Part shown: positions 5,910-12,959 of the stretch, piece by piece | Layout of the letters: each line of letters starts with the position of its first letter | Position numbering within the stretch: position 1 is the stretch's first letter | Assembly: GCA_965248535.1 (NCBI GenBank) | Contig: CBDFJR010000005.1 | Coordinates: forward strand, 2,176,001 to 2,240,000 | Reading direction: 5' to 3' | Origin: Phormidesmis sp. | Lineage (GTDB): Bacteria > Cyanobacteriota > Cyanobacteriia > Leptolyngbyales > Leptolyngbyaceae | Length of the DNA stretch: 64,000 nt | Position numbers and translations under genes: made by a program | The notes under the pieces: model-generated | Seen by the model: only the letters and a program-made list of their open reading frames with translations | Told to the model about the DNA's origin: nothing | Databases searched by the model: none

Positions 5910-7208
5910 GTGAAAAAAGTATTAGCAATCATTTTAGGCGGGGGAGCCGGAACTCGCCTCTACCCGTTAACCAAGCAGCGCGCAAAGCCTGCGGTTCCTC
6001 TCGCTGGCAAATATCGTCTGATTGATATCCCGGTTAGTAACTGTATTAATTCAGAAATCTTTAAAATTTACGTTCTGACTCAATTTAACTCTGCTTCTCT
6101 CAACCGACATCTCACAAGAGCCTATAACTTTTCATCTGGGTTTAACGACGGCTTTGTTGAAGTTTTAGCCGCCCAACAAACTCCCGAAAACCCCAACTGG
6201 TTTCAGGGCACTGCTGACGCGGTGCGGCAATATCTCTGGCTGCTGCAAGAATGGGATGTTGATGAATACATCATTCTCTCTGGCGATCACTTATATCGGA
6301 TGGATTATCGCCAGTTTGTGCAGCGTCACCGCGAGACCGGGGCTGATATCACTCTGTCAGTGGTGCCGATGGATGAGCGCCGGGCCTCTGATTTTGGCTT
6401 GATGAAAATCGACCAAGCAGGGCGAGTGATCGACTTCAGCGAAAAGCCCAAAGGCGATGCGCTCAAAGATATGCAGGTCGATACGACCGTTTTAGGGCTG
6501 ACGGCTGATCAGGCGAAAGAAAACCCCTACATTGCCTCTATGGGCATTTATGTTTTTAAGAAAGAGGCCTTGGTCAAACTGCTGCGGCAAGCGCCCGATC
6601 AGACCGATTTTGGTAAAGAAATTATTCCAGCTTCGGCCCTGACCCACAACGTTCAGGCTTTTTTGTTTAACGATTATTGGGCCGATATTGGAACGATCGA
6701 GGCCTTTTATGAGGCTAACTTGGCGCTGACTCAACAGCCCAACCCTCCCTTCAGCTTTTATGATGACAAAGCTCCGATCTATACTCGTCACCGTTTTCTG
6801 CCCCCCAGCAAATATTTTGACTGCAAAATCACCGAGTCGTTAATCGGCGAGGGCTGCATTCTCAAAGACTGCCGCATTAGCCATTCGGTTTTGGGCGTGC
6901 GATCGCGCATTGAGGGCGGAGCCACGATCGAAGACACGTTGATCATGGGGGCTGACTTCTATGAAGACTATGCCGAACGGCAATCAGAACTCGACTGTGA
7001 CAATGCTCAAGTTCCCTTGGGCATTGGCAAAGACTCGGTGATTCGACGGGCGATCATCGACAAAAACGCCCGCATTGGCTGCAACGTTCACATTGTCAAC
7101 AAAGATCGGGTCGAAGAAGCCAATCGAGAGAATCAAGGGTTCTACATTCGCAGTGGCATCGTCGTGGTGTTGAAAAATGCGACGATTCCCGATGGAATGG
7201 TGATTTAG
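5910..7208 (+). CDS. glgC: Glucose-1-phosphate adenylyltransferase
   Basis: [35 protein letters not shown]; likely GTG start at 5910. Confidence 0.97.
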
Positions 7209-7224
7209 AAACGATGACGGCTAT

Positions 7225-7273
7225 AAAAAATGAGAGATGAAGCAGATAGGTTGGTTTCACCTCCCATTTTTTT
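7225..7273. terminator. Bidirectional intrinsic terminator between convergent glgC and aroF
   Basis: AAAAAATGAGAGATGAAGC...GGTTTCACCTCCCATTTTTTT imperfect hairpin with A and T tracts on both sides. Confidence 0.6.
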
Positions 7274-8128
7274 AAGCGATCGCTAACTGGGGGCTTTGAG
7301 CCTCATAGACCTGACGACCGATCGCTTCGGCAACGGGCTTGAGACTGCGGACTAGACTCACCATGTCGTTGAGAGCTAACGCTTGACGGGCATCAGAAAC
7401 AGACTTTTCTGGCTCTGGGTGACACTCAATGATCAGACCGTCGGCACCACACGCGATCGCGCCACGAGATAGATCCGCGATCAGTTCTCGCTTTCCGGCG
7501 GCATGGCTGGGATCGACCATCACAGGTAAATGAGTGATTTGTTTGAGGGCGACGACGGCTCCTAAATCCAGCACGTTGCGAGTGTAGGGGTCAAAGCTGC
7601 GAATGCCTCGCTCGCACAGCACAACATTGGGGTTGCCGTGACTGACGATATATTCGGCGGCCATCACAAACTCCTCGATCGTCGCCGCCAACCCTCGCTT
7701 GAGCAAAATCGGCTTGTTGGCTTGTCCAACGGCTTTGAGCAGATCGAAGTTTTGCATATTGCGGCTGCCGATTTGCAGCATATCGGCATAGGCAGCGATT
7801 TCCTCGATCTGTGAAATGGCCATCACTTCAGTCACGACAGGCATCCCCGTAGCTGGTTGCGAACCTCTGCCAAGATTTCTAGCCCCTCGATGCCCATGCC
7901 CTGAAACGCATAGGGCGACGTGCGCGGCTTATAAACGCCACCTCGCAACGCTTGCACGGGCGCAAACTGAAGGTGACGGGCGACGGTTTCCATTTGCGTC
8001 AGGCTTTCGACGGTGCAGGGGCCGCCGATGACGACGATTTTTTGACCCCCGATCGCCACTCGCTCAGAGAGTTTAACGATCGTGTTCTGATTTGATTGAG
8101 ATTTAGCGACCAATTTTGCATCTTTCAT
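7272..8128 (-). CDS. aroF: DAHP synthase type I-beta, short form without N-terminal ACT domain; split by a frameshift near 7845-7860 (error or recent pseudogene)
   Basis: ORF 7832-8128 (IGGPCTVES, RGGVYKPRTSPYAFQG) and ORF 7272-7844 (QIGSRNMQNF, LKRG, CERGIRSF, DPSH) are contiguous halves; SD GGAG before ATG 8128. Confidence 0.9.
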
Positions 8129-8148
8129 GACCTAGACTCCTAAATAAT

Positions 8149-8178
8149 AAAAAAGCCCGAAACCTTTGGGTTCCGGGC
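8149..8178 (-). terminator. Attenuator terminator 2 (proximal to aroF)
   Basis: GCCCGGAACC-CAAA-GGTTTCGGGC 10-bp stem followed by UUUUUU, about 20 nt upstream of the aroF start. Confidence 0.9.
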
Positions 8179-8202
8179 CTGACGAACATTTGCACGACAG
8201 CT

Positions 8203-8265
8203 TCACCCAGAACTGGTTGGGATAAAAAAATAAAATCTAAATCGCCAGGAATTCAGGTGGAGCAT
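8203..8265 (-). CDS. Aromatic amino acid leader peptide 2 (MLHLNSWRFRFYFFIPTSSG)
   Basis: 20-aa ORF with a W-R-F-R-F-Y-F-F cluster; its 3' end GUUCUGGGU pairs with the 5' arm of terminator 2. Confidence 0.8.
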   Translation of the reverse strand: MLHLNSWRFRFYFFIPTSSG

Positions 8266-8279
8266 CAGAGAAAAAACCG

Positions 8280-8304
8280 AATCAGGACATTTAATCAGGA
8301 CATT
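8280..8304. repeat. 12-bp direct repeat AATCAGGACATT x2
   Basis: Identical copies at 8280-8291 and 8293-8304. Confidence 0.85.
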
Positions 8305-8332
8305 AAAAAACCGCAGAGGTTAGTCTGCGGTT
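8305..8332 (-). terminator. Attenuator terminator 1 (distal)
   Basis: AACCGCAGA-CTAACC-TCTGCGG stem-loop followed by UUUUUU. Confidence 0.88.
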
Positions 8333-8359
8333 CACTGGGGCGCTCACAACGAACGACAT

Positions 8360-8413
8360 TCACCCCAAGTGAACCGCCTCGCGCCAAAAAAAGAAAAACG
8401 TGTTGTGAGACAT
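8360..8413 (-). CDS. Aromatic amino acid leader peptide 1 (MSHNTFFFFWREAVHLG)
   Basis: 17-aa ORF with four consecutive Phe codons then Trp; its 3' end GCGGUUCACUUGGGGUG pairs with CGCCCCAGUGAACCGC, which overlaps the terminator 1 5' arm. Confidence 0.85.
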   Translation of the reverse strand: MSHNTFFFFWREAVHLG

Positions 8414-8445
8414 AAAAGGGTGCCGCTCGAAAACTGATTACTCTG

Positions 8446-8474
8446 AACTTAACAGAGGAACTCGATCGCGTCAA
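8446..8474 (-). promoter_or_regulatory. Sigma70-type promoter for the leader-aroF transcript
   Basis: TTGACG-N17-TAAGTT with extended -10 TGn. Confidence 0.65.
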
Positions 8475-8528
8475 GTACCTTAGATGAGGTTTGAAAAGTA
8501 TCGAAAGTTTCTTCGCTTCGTTGCCGTC

Positions 8529-8584
8529 CCGCCCGTGACTGCAAGTCCGGGCTAACGGGGCGAAACCCGTTTCAACGGGTTGAA
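8529..8584. repeat. REP-like double-hairpin element
   Basis: GCCCGTGACTGCAAGTCCGGGC and AACCCGTTTCAACGGGTT palindromes. Confidence 0.5.
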
Positions 8585-8665
8585 TTCAACTGCTACTAGG
8601 GATGACGCTGGGATTCGGTTGTTTCGCTGCGCCTTCTGAAAGGATACGGGTGTCGAGCAGATATA

Positions 8666-8902
8666 TCATAGATTGACGCGATCGGGAATGGGACTTTGAT
8701 CGCGGGTGAGGTCGAGTTCACCACTGGCAAGCGCTTCAGCGAGGGGAGAATCTTGTAGGAATTCGACAAGACTTTGGTGAGTAGGTTGGGGAGTTGAGGC
8801 TGGATTGGAGGCGGAGAGACTTTCGCTGAGGAGTTGAATGAGCCGCTGTTTTTCTGCGGGTTCAAGACCAAGGAGTTGTTGTTCTAATTCTTGGGTGAGC
8901 AT
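8666..8902 (-). CDS. Small antitoxin-like hypothetical protein
   Basis: ELEQQLLGLEPAEKQRLIQLL and SLVEFLQDSPL...ELDLTRDQS resemble cyanobacterial antitoxin-like small proteins; no toxin gene follows. Confidence 0.55.
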   Translation of the reverse strand: MLTQELEQQLLGLEPAEKQRLIQLLSESLSASNPASTPQPTHQSLVEFLQDSPLAEALASGELDLTRDQSPIPDRVNL

Positions 8903-8946
8903 GGGCGACGGGAATACATATTCACTTTCAGTTTATCGCTTCTGCT

Positions 8947-11900
8947 TCATTTCCATTGATTGCATACGTCGCGCATGGCATCGACCATGCCTCGGATGGC
9001 GGCGGCTCCGCCGAGATGTGCGATCGGGGGATGCAGCGTGGCGAGGTCTTGCATAAGATCGGCGCGGGTGCAGTGGGCAAGGAGGTGAAGGTGGGATTGC
9101 CAGTCGGGATACGGGAGTGTAGCAAGAGAAAGGCGAGGAAGATAGGATCGGAGGGTTGTGGCGCGGGTGAGCTTGTGGATGATGGCATGGATGGCATCAA
9201 GGGCTTGGGGCAGAAACACTTCAGGTAGCTCTTCAGCTAACCCACACAACCCTTCTGCACGCGCTTGCTCATTTTGGAATAGCGACAATATTTCTAGAAG
9301 TGCGGGCAGTAATGCTTCAGGCAATTGCTTAGCTACACCACCATCGCAAAATATATCTCCAAATTCCACATACTTTCGCTCAGTCTGAATCAACAACCAT
9401 AGCGCCTCAAACGCTTCAGTTAAATAAGCTGGGTCAGTTTGAATTAGAGCATAGAGAAACTCTAAAACAGCACGTTTAAACTCATCTTGGACTAATCGCG
9501 CCAATTCTAACCCTTTAGTAAAATAAGTTGAATCAATTTGTGCTAGGGAATGCAATGCCCACGCACGCATGAATTCATCCTGAATTGATCGTGCAGCCGA
9601 TGACAACTGGGCAAGGTCAGCATTGCTAACCTTAGCTAGATCACGCAATGCAGGGGCACGGTCTGTGATTTTAGACCATGCAAAGGCTTGCTCATCCTCA
9701 ATAGACTCGCCGCACTTAATGCTTCTGCAAAATATGTTTCGTCAATTTCCGCTAAGTCAATCAATCTAAGTGTACGGTTGTAGTTGTTCTGTTGTGATCG
9801 AGCCACGCTTAAAGCTTCTGCAAAGCAGATTTCGTCAATTTGGGCTAGGAAAGTGCTTAATATTCCTGCACGATCGGACTCATCCTGAATTAATCGTGCA
9901 GTATTCAATGCTTCCATGGAGTACGTTCTGTCAATTCGAGCTAAGACGCTCAATGCTCTTGCACGATCGGACTTATCCTGAATTAACCGTGCAGCATCCA
10001 ATGCTTCTGCAAAATATGCTCTGTCGATTCGAGCTAAAATGCTCAATGCTCTTGCACGATCGAACTGCATCCGAATTGAGCGGGCAGCATCCGATGCTTC
10101 TGCAAGATATGCTCTGTCGATTCGGACTAGTTTGAAGAGTGCCCTTGCCTGCTTGTCCTCATCGTGAATTGAGAATGCCACGTCCAACAATCTAGCAATA
10201 TCAGCAGTGTTCACTTCGGCTAAGATACTCAGTATCTTCACTTTTCGCATATTCCAAGGCTCAATCAACCTCTCCTTCTCAATTGCAAGAAATGCCGCTA
10301 ATGCTTCTGCAAAATAAGCTGGGTCAATTTTGGCCAAGACACTCAACGCCACCGCGCTCTCATGTTTATTTCTAATTGTTCGTGCTGTTGTCAATGCCTC
10401 AGTAAAATGAGTCGAGTCAGTTTTAGCTAGAGCAGTTAATATCATCGCCCGCCAGTACTCATCTTGAAGAGATCTCGCTGTCTCTGCTGAAAGATAAGTA
10501 TGGTCAATCTCAGCTAAGGTATCCATCACTTCTGAATGAAAGAATGGATGTTGAATTGACCGTACAGCATCTAATGCTTCTTCAAAATATGCGTTATTGA
10601 TTTTAGCTAGCGTACACAATGCTGTTGCACGGGCGGACGCGTTTTGAACTGACCGTACAGCGTCTAATGCTTCTTCAAAATAGGAATTATCAATTTTGGC
10701 TAGATCACTCAATGCCGATGCTCTATGACATTCGTCCTGTATTGATCGTGAGACCTCTATGGTCTCTGGCAAGTAAACTGAGTCAATCTGAGCTAATTTG
10801 TTCAATGATCTTGCGCGATCTCTCACATCTCGAATTGACCGTGCCACCCTCACCGCTTCTAACAGGTAGGCTGAGTCAACCTGGGTTAAGGCAGTCAATG
10901 CCATTGCAATGTTACTCTCATTCCGCAGTGATCGCGTCTTCTTAACCGCAAACCCAAAGATCGCCTTAGGCAAATACGACGCAAGTTTCTCAATCGCCTC
11001 AACAATATTCTCCTCATCCTGCATTTGCTCTACATATGCCCAAGCTTGCTCTGGTGTCCAATACTTACGCTTCACAAACTCTGCCATCATCCCGATCGGT
11101 AGATTCCCCACCAAACTATTCAGCGTTGCTGTAATCAATGCATATCGACACTGCAACACAATCGAGCGAGTATTATCTTGCTCATAACTTTCCTCTGCAA
11201 TTTGCCACCCTCGCTTCACATCCTGTACAAAAATCGCAGGTTGCCCCAGTCGATCGCACGCCTCAAACCAAGCATTCCGCCCCTGCTCATCACTCATCGC
11301 CATCAGCACATGAATCTCATCCTCTCGCCCCGCCTGCTGGAGATGCCACGTCAAATGGCGATGAATATATCCATCATTCGGCAACCGATCCCAGCGATCG
11401 CACTTTTGGCGATAGCGATCCAAGAATTGAGCATGAGCATCCGCAAGCGTTCGGATTGGAGCGCTGAGGGTTGCTTGTTCGATCAATCCCCGCGCCGTAT
11501 CGTGCATCAAATCATGCACCCGATAGGTTAGCTCCCCTTCCAATGTCTCCGTCCCACTGGTCAGAAACGATCGATTCCGCAGAGCAATTAATGCCTTCTT
11601 CGCTTTCAAGGGCGACAACTCCCACAGTGTCACCGCCATCCGCACATCCAGACTCACATCCTCTGGCAACACTCCTAACCACGCAAACTGCCGTAACTGT
11701 TCCGCACTCAACCGCCGCAAACTCAAATTAAAACAAGCCCGCAAACTATACTTGCGCTGCTGATTCTCATCCAGACAATCCCAAGCCTCCGAAGAATCCA
11801 ATACCTCCAACGCTACTGATCGCCGCTCTGTCTCAAACTCCGATCGCAACTCCCCCCAACTCAACCCATCCCGCACCTGATTCGCCGCCAAATCTAACGC

Positions 11901-12959
11901 CAACGGCAAATATCCCAACGACTTCGCAAACGCTTTTACTTCCGATTCCTGTTCCGGTTTCCACTGTCGTTTTAGCTTTTGCCGCACTAGCTCGATCGCT
12001 TCCACTTCCGACATCAAATCCAACAGATGATACTCCGCTCCCTCAATCTGCGCCTCCCGCGTCGTCACCAACACCCGACACGCTGCACCGCCCACCCGAA
12101 AATGCTCCACATGCGCCCCATTCCACACATCATCCACCACCAGCAACATTCGCTTTTCCAGTAGCACCGTCCGCAAATAACTTGAAGCCCATTCCAACGT
12201 CGTCGCCGAATAACTCTCCCGCGACTTATCCAACGTCCGAATCCAATCTCCCAGCAAATTTTGAAGGTCGGGATTCTGTCCCAGCGTCACCCACAAGATC
12301 CCATCTGCAAATCTCGTCTGCACCTCAGCATCTAGCACCAACGCTGTTGCCAACACCGATTTGCCCAATCCGCCTAAACCTGCGATCGCGCTCACCACTA
12401 ATGCCCGATCGTCCGTTGCCAACAGCTTCTGCTTCACCGCATCAAACGCTTTAGGACGCGGCACATAGTTCTCCGGCAACCGCACCCCTAGAGACGGCGC
12501 ACCCACCTTCAGTCCTGATTTCGGGCTTTGCTCTGGTAGAGCCTGCAATTTCGACTTGGGCGATCGCTTACTTTCCCAGAGCTTATCAAACGCTTCGAGA
12601 TTACGACTGATGTGTGTTGAACTTAACGTCAGCGTAAAATCCCACTGCGCCTCACCCTTTGTTTTCACGCGATGGTCATGCAAAATCCCCAGAAAATCCC
12701 GCATCGCCTCCAAGGCTTCCCGCACATTTGCGGTCGTCACAGTTGCCTGTCCGTCTTGATTGGTGACGTGCATCAAAGCTTGCAGTGTCGTCTCGATCGT
12801 CACCTTCTGACTTCCTGCTGCTTCATCCTGCCAGCGAAACTGTAATTTTTTTGAATCGCTGATCTCTCCTACTTTTGTCGCCTCCAAAATCCCCTTCAAC
12901 ACTTGACGGACACGAGCTTGCACGATCGGACCATGGGATTTTTTCTGAGAGCTAGGCAT
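8947..12959 (-). CDS. NLR-like STAND protein: N-terminal domain + NB-ARC + winged helix/helical domain + ~32-aa helical repeats; frameshift near 9708-9712
   Basis: Walker A GLGGLGKS, Walker B LLVVDDVW, GYLPLAL, VHDLM; repeats ALxxARSIQDExxRAxALxxLAxID continue in ORF 8947-9648. Confidence 0.85.

Follow-up and report, generated by a model that had tools for sequence, protein, structure and literature searches.

Organization of the locus

The DNA analysed here, referred to as the window, is a stretch of 64,000 nucleotides (nt) from Phormidesmis sp. (contig CBDFJR010000005.1, forward strand, 2,176,001-2,240,000). The minus strand carries, in order from 8474 to 8128, a promoter, leader 1, terminator 1, leader 2, terminator 2 and aroF, the gene of a 3-deoxy-D-arabino-heptulosonate 7-phosphate (DAHP) synthase. 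Each leader is a short upstream open reading frame (uORF) with a run of aromatic codons. Its last codons (segment A) can pair with the 5' arm (segment B) of the terminator that follows, and B can also pair with the 3' arm (segment C). An initial annotation of this DNA had described two ribosome-mediated attenuators in series. This description is borne out by conservation, covariation and folding with a modelled ribosome footprint in about 80 sequences, and the positions given there for the promoter, leaders, terminators and aroF are accurate to the base on the minus strand. On this evidence from sequence and modelling, the structure is very probably a tandem of ribosome-mediated transcription attenuators that controls a second, barrel-only DAHP synthase. 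The features are presented in Table 1; the terminator scan picked up both hairpins with their T runs.

Table 1. Features of the attenuator region upstream of aroF (positions in the window)
Feature	Position	Strand	Details
Promoter	8446..8474	-	-35 TTGACG 8474-8469; 17-nt spacer; TG-extended -10 TGTTAAGTT 8454-8446 (TG 8454-8453, -10 TAAGTT 8451-8446)
Leader 1 uORF, MSHNTFFFFWREAVHLG + TGA	8360..8413	-	ATG 8413, TGA 8362-8360; FFFFW 8398-8384
Segment A1, last codons of leader 1, GCGGTTCACTTGGGG	8363..8377	-	Putative 5' strand of antiterminator 1; partner 8340-8327
Segment B1, CCCCAGTGAACCGC	8327..8340	-	Putative 3' strand of antiterminator 1; overlaps terminator 1 5' arm
Terminator 1, GAACCGCAGA / loop CTAACC / TCTGCGGTTT	8305..8333	-	Hairpin 8333-8308; T run (TTTTTT) to 8305
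Leader 2 uORF, MLHLNSWRFRFYFFIPTSSG + TGA	8203..8265	-	Aromatic codons 8247-8224
Segment A2, last codons of leader 2, AGTTCTGGG	8206..8214	-	Putative 5' strand of antiterminator 2
Terminator 2, AGGCCCGGAACC / CAAA / GGTTTCGGGCTT	8149..8180	-	Hairpin 8180-8153; T run to 8149; B2 = 5' arm 8177-8170
Shine-Dalgarno sequence and DAHP synthase gene	7272..8141	-	AGGAG 8141-8137; ATG 8128; stop 7272; PF00793

Conservation and specificity

Upstream of orthologous genes, unit 1 was found in 81 and unit 2 in 76 distinct sequences, and these sets form the basis of the leader statistics given below. The alignment of aroF upstream regions across cyanobacteria, which the initial annotation had recommended, revealed that the uORFs rich in Phe, Trp and Tyr codons are kept and that the stems contain compensatory changes. 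The nearest named relative is Phormidesmis priestleyi BC1401, with 95% protein identity. Among 41 related genomes there are 25 loci with an ortholog (at least 77% identity over the 190-residue query), and both aromatic uORFs are found upstream in 24 of them; the contig of the remaining locus ends 256 nt upstream of the gene and holds too little upstream DNA. Nothing comparable was found at the loci of the paralog, L027-L030 (about 52% identical), or at L025 (60% identical).

A scan of species-representative genomes gave 80 loci, 62 of which (L031-L092) are orthologs of the cyanobacterial type, nearly all with the tandem. These come from Nostocales, Oscillatoriales, Leptolyngbya-like organisms and one metagenome-assembled genome (MAG) labelled Gloeobacterales, and they also include eight MAGs of the Obscuribacterales or "Melainabacteria" type. 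Isolates of Nostoc, Calothrix, Laspinema and Phormidesmis are among the carriers of the tandem. When 87 ortholog loci were searched with nhmmer, unit 1 was found in 84 and unit 2 in 82. Unit 1 was not found by this search in L063 and L072, and the contig of L011 ends too near the gene to judge; unit 2 was not found in L073, L083, L087, L088 and L089. A covariance model detected a weak second unit in L073, L088 and L089, and in L088 a second aromatic uORF with a terminator is present.

The specificity of the element was assessed with covariance models of unit 1 (R1) and unit 2 (R2) in 151 genomes sampled evenly across the phylum. An ortholog (at least 68% identity) is present in 21 genomes, while the others have only a domain-bearing paralog, which is described below. 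R1 gave one match in each of 21 genomes and R2 a strong match in 20; both units lie immediately upstream of the gene in 19 genomes. Genome G077 has unit 1 only and G126, which is Phormidium lacuna (L063), has unit 2 only. The sole R1 match without the gene is a relic in genome G089 (L111 about 1650-1890, contig C49, minus strand), where a deletion has joined an intact leader 1, MFSSRSYFYFWFRVVHWE, and its antiterminator to the interior of a decayed, truncated aroF frame. Six weak R2 matches occur in other, small-genome cyanobacteria. The three that were inspected (L113-L115) were rejected as real units, having no uORF and no terminator, and the other three are partial matches. Since the matches are confined to the upstream region of the gene, the element belongs to this one gene. 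The arrangement is far beyond chance, and the unit models match once per genome, adjoining aroF only.

Further attenuators were sought in the genome to which the window belongs (G000, 5.03 Mb). Strict terminator criteria (a perfect stem of at least 6 pairs, at least 4 G-C pairs and at least 6 T in 9) gave 266 terminator-like sites, including both aroF terminators. In this crude strict scan 38 combinations of uORF and terminator passed the filter and none was leader-like, which does not prove absence. Under relaxed criteria both aroF leaders, which served as positive controls, were recovered; the 15 other candidate sites that were inspected were rejected, being open reading frames (ORFs) out of frame within genes or the C-terminal ends of genes lying upstream. 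In the same genome, contig C2 contains two near-identical copies of about 200 nt (about 1429850-1430050 on the plus strand and about 2357680-2357880 on the minus strand), each ending in a GCGATCGC-rich hairpin and a T run.

In 74 of the 81 sequences the 110 nt preceding leader 1 contain the motif TTGAC-N17-19-TAnnnT; the average over 200 shuffles was 0.76, with 3 as the highest value. The -10 is TGn-extended in 61/81. A consensus promoter scan of the window called no promoter here, because the -10 hexamer fits the consensus poorly, and the promoter was recovered by conservation only. Its retention in so many sequences indicates that the element owns a conserved, strong-looking promoter.

Terminator and antiterminator helices

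The terminator helices were scored on alignments of 81 (unit 1) and 76 (unit 2) sequences. In terminator 1, 97.5% of the cells are paired and 7 of 10 pairs have double-sided changes; none of 500 shuffles reached any of these measures. The corresponding values for terminator 2 are 89.2% and 6 of 11 pairs. The antiterminators were predicted by RNAalifold on sequences cut before the terminator 3' arm, and the pairing was not supplied. Unaided, the program gave A1:B1 for unit 1, with 10 pairs, 7 of them with compensatory changes; one of these pairs occurs as GC in 27 sequences, UA in 18, AU in 8 and CG in 5. For antiterminator 2 it gave 6 pairs, 3 of which covary. In this helix 89% of the cells are paired and 35 cells are doubly changed, and 0/500 shuffles were as high on both. 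The earlier claim that the last codons of each leader pair with the terminator 5' arm thus gains support in both units from covariation and from a prediction made without guidance.

It is important to note that the changes are consistent across all three strands. In unit 1, where A is replaced by G in B1, the leader U keeps a wobble pair and the terminator 3' arm changes to C. In unit 2 the change of B2 from CCCGGAAC to CCCGGGAC goes with a change of the leader codon TCC to CCC, by which a U-A pair becomes C-G and Ser becomes Pro. The residue is altered and the pairing preserved, so the conservation of the leader C-terminus reflects RNA pairing and not peptide function. The fold energies in the window are -29.7 for antiterminator 1 versus -14.9 kcal/mol for terminator 1, and -19.9 for antiterminator 2 versus -19.3 kcal/mol for terminator 2.

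A conserved 1:2 hairpin, which would act in pausing or as an anti-antiterminator, was also sought with RNAalifold in the leader regions. No pairs were predicted in unit 2, and in unit 1 only a local hairpin of 5 pairs, of about 0 kcal/mol and free of covariation, was obtained. The minimum-energy fold of the window pairs the start of leader 2 with A2; this was rejected as a 1:2 helix, the pairing not being conserved. With no conserved 1:2 helix, each unit would be a three-segment attenuator that is on by default.

Constitutive terminators are another explanation of these data. The products of about 110 nt would then be small RNAs or small-protein genes, and the control of aroF would be incidental, secondary or an added role. 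Abundant short transcripts would indeed be expected from a strong conserved promoter with an efficient terminator behind it, and attenuator RNAs with a dual function are known, as described for rnTrpL/peTrpL in Sinorhizobium (PMC7298713). We consider this explanation improbable. The elements are found only upstream of one gene and in its orientation, the decay of the gene goes with the decay of the element in G089, and the mutually exclusive antiterminators covary, whereas a plain terminator needs none.

The leader reading frames

Leader 1 has a median length of 18 residues with the consensus ..YFYFW..VH.. (n=81), and leader 2 has a median of 20 residues with the consensus ..SWFYGFYFW.R..SG (n=76). 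The start codon is ATG in 80/81 of the first, the remaining case being a frame wrongly picked by the script, and in 71/76 of the second. The densest stretch of leader 1 contains 5-6 aromatic residues out of 6 in 75/81, and that of leader 2 contains 6-8 out of 8 in 72/76. The last aromatic codon lies exactly six codons from the stop in 52/81 and 61/76, respectively. The C-terminal region of leader 1 has VH in most sequences, while leader 2 ends in SG in 53 sequences and PG in 10.

The Tyr codons are divided between TAT and TAC (82/78 in leader 1, 74/91 in leader 2) with codon positions 1 and 2 nearly fixed, and the Phe codons likewise vary at the third base. Such variation between T and C at the wobble position is a coding signature, and it suggests that the leaders are translated. 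Phe, Tyr and Trp all occur in 72/81 sequences of leader 1 and 71/76 of leader 2. The view that the two leaders jointly sample the three aromatic tRNAs is therefore correct for the window, in which leader 1 has no Tyr, but elsewhere each leader usually contains all three residues.

Some divergent leaders were observed. In the Obscuribacterales MAG locus L088 (860-1165) the aromatic run of each leader consists of Tyr only (KYYYYH and TYYYYQ), and the A:B pairing is kept through different sequences. A locus assigned to a divergent "uncultured cyanobacterium" (L108, about 470-700) has a single Trp-rich leader, NNWSWWW, followed by a terminator that resembles terminator 1.

The coding signature bears on a second explanation, in which the uORFs are not translated and the region is a riboswitch or a leader that binds a protein or tRNA (T-box-like or TRAP-like), with a ligand or factor setting the hairpins. 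The leaders lack a sequence resembling a Shine-Dalgarno (SD) site, and the cores GGTTCAC, GAACCGCAG and CCCGGAAC show unusually little variation, which can also be true of binding sites. Against it, the ATG, the frame and the stop position are kept, third-base variation is seen in the Tyr and Phe codons, and the aromatic run lies at a fixed distance of six codons from the stop. An Rfam cmscan of 7000-9500 with E values up to 10 returned 6 chance-level matches and none to leader, T-box or riboswitch families. The invariant cores are accounted for by three-way complementarity, because A and C must both pair with B. This explanation thus seems very unlikely.

The leaders could also act through their peptides, arresting the ribosome as nascent chains in the manner of TnaC when free aromatic amino acids are present in its tunnel; VHLE/G and RxSG, at the C-termini, would then serve as the arrest motif. 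The C-terminal residues are in fact strongly kept: most leader 1 sequences have VH, and 63/76 of leader 2 have SG or PG. However, the conserved C-terminal codons are exactly those of the antiterminator strand, and the replacement of Ser by Pro that accompanies CCCGGGAC keeps the pairing. The Obscuribacterales variants also keep the pairing with different peptides. The constraint on the RNA is sufficient, which makes arrest peptides extremely unlikely.

Folding with a modelled ribosome

The choice between the two structures was modelled by a snapshot, in which the RNA was folded up to the end of the terminator 5' arm, corresponding to the moment of choice, and the stretch around the A-site codon was blocked by the ribosome. 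The number of sequences that formed the antiterminator is presented in Table 2. According to this model, the position of the ribosome, stalled or at the stop, selects the structure in silico. The results suggest that unit 1 is insensitive to its last two aromatic codons, which are often Trp, and that in unit 2 every aromatic codon counts.

Table 2. Sequences forming the antiterminator in the snapshot model
Ribosome position	Unit 1	Unit 2
No ribosome	75/81	59/74
A site at stop	0/81	2/74
A site at last aromatic codon	1/81	64/74
A site at second-last aromatic codon	18/81	70/74
A site at third-last aromatic codon	70/81	72/74
A site mid-run	76/81	72/74

Equilibrium folding that includes the 3' arm gave, for unit 1, the terminator in 76/81 with the ribosome at the stop versus 20/81 with the ribosome mid-run. 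The folding of both states, which the initial annotation had proposed as a check, thus reproduces the switch for both units in the snapshot, but at equilibrium terminator 2 is favoured whatever the ribosome position.

Several points weigh against control by attenuation as proposed here. In unit 2, the terminator wins at equilibrium in 49-59/74 in every ribosome state. It follows that unit 2 can work only kinetically; the E. coli trp terminator is likewise the more stable helix. In unit 1 the modelled antiterminator is still blocked when the ribosome stalls at either of the last two aromatic codons, as seen in Table 2. The footprint of the modelled ribosome, -15 to +12 around the A-site codon, is of assumed size. 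A pause hairpin that would synchronise polymerase and ribosome was sought in both units, and none is conserved. A search of sequencing runs gave none of RNA that covers the region, and the four runs compared with it consisted of contigs. The initial annotation had already remarked that neither leader has a clear SD sequence, and this is general: an SD-like 4-mer precedes leader 1 in 4/76 and leader 2 in 18/71, compared with 70/79 for aroF and a background of 9.5%. Finally, all counts given in this work refer to related genomes, which are not independent trials.

Proposed mechanism

Transcription would start at the conserved promoter with TTGACG and the TG-extended -10, and in each unit the short leader would be translated while RNA polymerase advances. 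The last 3-5 codons of the leader, segment A, are predicted to be complementary to the 5' arm B of the intrinsic terminator B:C. With an ample supply of Phe-, Tyr- and Trp-tRNAs, the ribosome would reach the stop codon and cover A, B:C would form and transcription would end. When an aromatic tRNA is scarce, the ribosome would stall in the aromatic run, at least six codons before the stop. Segment A would then be left free to capture B as it emerges, and the polymerase would read through. An untranslated leader should also allow read-through, because there is no anti-antiterminator, so that the switch would be on by default.

With two units in series the probabilities of read-through would multiply, giving a lower leak and a steeper response. 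A single three-segment unit would be inherently leaky, since the leaders are devoid of SD sequences and there is no pause hairpin. Reduction of this leak is most likely the reason for the tandem, which may also be regarded as an AND gate. We infer that the leaders are translated, that stalling decides on termination, that the charged aromatic tRNAs provide the signal and that the tandem sharpens the control.

The regulated DAHP synthase and its paralog

In the assembly the gene is split into ORFs of 98 and 190 amino acid residues, with PF00793 on both pieces, while the relatives have a single ORF of 284 residues. The window has 2 extra bases near 7851 (7840-7860, minus strand) relative to all relatives. 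Short-read contigs of two public runs (X1 and X2) are otherwise identical to the window in this section and do not have the 2 bases, which occur in no contig aligned to the stretch. An error of the assembly is therefore the most likely cause of the frameshift, and the gene is regarded as intact, not as a pseudogene.

The protein of 284 residues consists of the catalytic barrel alone, and searches of NCBIfam and Pfam show no ferredoxin-like domain. A second DAHP synthase of 351 residues (L117 288-1343) is encoded on contig C5 at about 1326487-1327542 (about 1.327 Mb) on the minus strand, and it carries the N-terminal ferredoxin-like domain PF18152. It is the domain-bearing paralog of this type, and not the attenuated enzyme, that is present in nearly all cyanobacterial genomes sampled. 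The ferredoxin-like domain mediates feedback inhibition in the DAHP synthase family. From the domain composition we infer that the attenuated enzyme would escape feedback inhibition.

Other features were observed next to the locus. A perfect hairpin, AACCCGT/TGAA/ACGGGTT, lies at 8564-8589 between an upstream ORF of 78 residues and the attenuator promoter; it has no T run, and its Rfam match is at chance level only. The adjacent minus-strand ORFs of 233 and 1107 residues (8947-12959) share many repeats of about 30 residues with the pattern ..ARSIQDE..RA.AL..LA.ID..Y..EAL.., and no Pfam family was found for the ORF of 233 residues.

Origin and distribution

The two units were compared with each other by hidden Markov models (HMMs). 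The unit-2 HMM gave 76 matches to unit-1 sequences at E values up to 10 and 6 at up to 0.01, some of which span the whole unit, while shuffled targets gave 1-2 matches. The cross-matches are weak but collinear, which makes an origin of the units by duplication plausible; the similarity may also have arisen by convergence under the same constraints. The ending GGG-TGA-A..TGTCGT shared by both leaders had been taken as a hint of an old duplication. In unit 1 this ending is limited to the Phormidesmis genus and a few relatives, and it is the weak collinear similarity of the units that keeps a duplication plausible.

The phylogeny of the enzymes was examined with a quick maximum-likelihood tree with a midpoint root, for which a careful search was unfinished. 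The leader-bearing enzymes form one clade (Shimodaira-Hasegawa-like approximate likelihood ratio test, SH-aLRT, 99). The enzymes of Obscuribacterales form one group (SH-aLRT 97), nested in the cyanobacterial clade beside Drouetiella. This nesting favours a transfer of the gene together with its attenuators over inheritance from a common ancestor of Cyanobacteriia and Obscuribacterales, and vertical descent was set aside for this reason. In the same tree the DAHP synthase and both leaders of the MAG labelled Gloeobacterales (L032) cluster with those of Phormidesmis and Leptolyngbya; either the assignment of the MAG is in doubt or it has acquired this contig.

A broader reading, to which we would give an even chance, joins these observations. 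It would be the first case of leader-peptide attenuation in Cyanobacteriota, in tandem, with three segments and on by default, and it would depend on the first ribosome staying close behind RNA polymerase. A feedback-blind "emergency" DAHP synthase would be controlled by the attenuators alone, and the housekeeping isozyme allosterically. The gene and its attenuators would have moved into the non-photosynthetic Obscuribacterales, and the leaders would have been retuned there and in one divergent cyanobacterial MAG to Tyr-only and Trp-rich forms.

Comparison with known attenuators

In E. coli trpL and pheL, a uORF rich in the codons of its own amino acid is followed by an intrinsic terminator and an overlapping antiterminator, and the position of the leading ribosome decides between them (cited in PMC11802643). 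The initial annotation had recognised this logic in the cyanobacterial element. The arrangement of uORF, terminator and antiterminator and the decision logic are indeed shared, but the conserved 1:2 anti-antiterminator hairpin was not found. The E. coli leaders have four segments including the 1:2 hairpin, and when untranslated they terminate, whereas the cyanobacterial units have three segments and should read through. Unlike the E. coli design, the 5' strand of the putative antiterminator lies inside the last codons of the leader.

The closest established case, by analogy, is aroR-aroF of Corynebacterium glutamicum, in which a leader with Phe-Tyr-Phe responds to Phe limitation (Neshat et al. 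2014, as cited in PMC11802643). As it is described there, an aromatic leader likewise precedes the DAHP synthase gene and stalling at the aromatic codons raises transcription, but it is a single unit and belongs to Actinobacteria (PMC11802643); the comparison is made by description. The cyanobacterial element differs from it in being a tandem, in another phylum, and in preceding another subtype of DAHP synthase (short type I-beta).

A predicted uORF with Phe codons and a terminator upstream of aroF, uORFC-13-1, is described from Acholeplasma and environmental sequences only (Brewer et al. 2021, PMC8632094). According to that description the uORF is likewise followed by a terminator and by the same kind of DAHP synthase, but there is a single unit (PMC8632094). 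Acholeplasma likewise belongs to a phylum for which the absence of Rho is described (PMC12360218). When R1 and R2 were compared with the Acholeplasma oculi locus (L103) and other non-cyanobacterial loci, there was no match except a partial terminator match in L108. Single uORFs rich in Tyr and Phe were observed near terminator-like hairpins in an Anaerolineae genome (L095), A. oculi (L103), a Mycoplasmatales MAG (L105) and a Bacillota MAG (L110), with examples such as ETYYYYYYV and SYYYFYHM in the 500 nt upstream. The uORF of A. oculi is probably the published uORFC-13-1 motif.

The term "tandem attenuators" has been used for the Salmonella mgtCBR leader, in which two short ORFs set the stem-loops of a virulence operon (Lee and Groisman 2012, PMC3641672). 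As described there, two short ORFs are similarly present in one leader and their translation sets alternative stem-loops (PMC3641672). The cyanobacterial element differs in that it has two complete units of uORF and intrinsic terminator, which would read the same aromatic signal and precede a biosynthetic gene. The two short ORFs of mgtCBR reportedly read different signals, ATP and proline.

The remark in the initial annotation that leader-peptide attenuation is not established in cyanobacteria agrees with the literature. A full-text search, from which subscription journals were mostly outside the scope, gave no cyanobacterial leader-peptide attenuator and no description of this element, and a paper from 2016 describes reliable data for attenuation in cyanobacteria as lacking (Korolev et al. 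2016, PMC4833913). The absence of Rho from Cyanobacteriota is described in PMC12360218.

Significance

The mechanism proposed here is classical. The novelty lies in the phylum, in the arrangement of two complete units in tandem, in a design with three segments and in the association with a DAHP synthase devoid of a regulatory domain. The element would fill a gap, as it is poorly understood how cyanobacteria control amino-acid biosynthesis at the level of RNA. Conservation of a leader-peptide attenuator in these organisms implies a short distance between RNA polymerase and the first ribosome behind it, and the coupling of transcription and translation becomes directly testable in a phylum that lacks Rho. 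It would also be a natural example of multiplicative control, in which units in series would cut the leak of a switch that is on by default. The element flags a DAHP synthase without a regulatory domain, which is of interest for the production of aromatic compounds in cyanobacteria. If the proposed mechanism is true, the charging of aromatic tRNAs could be sensed with this element, which is compact and portable.

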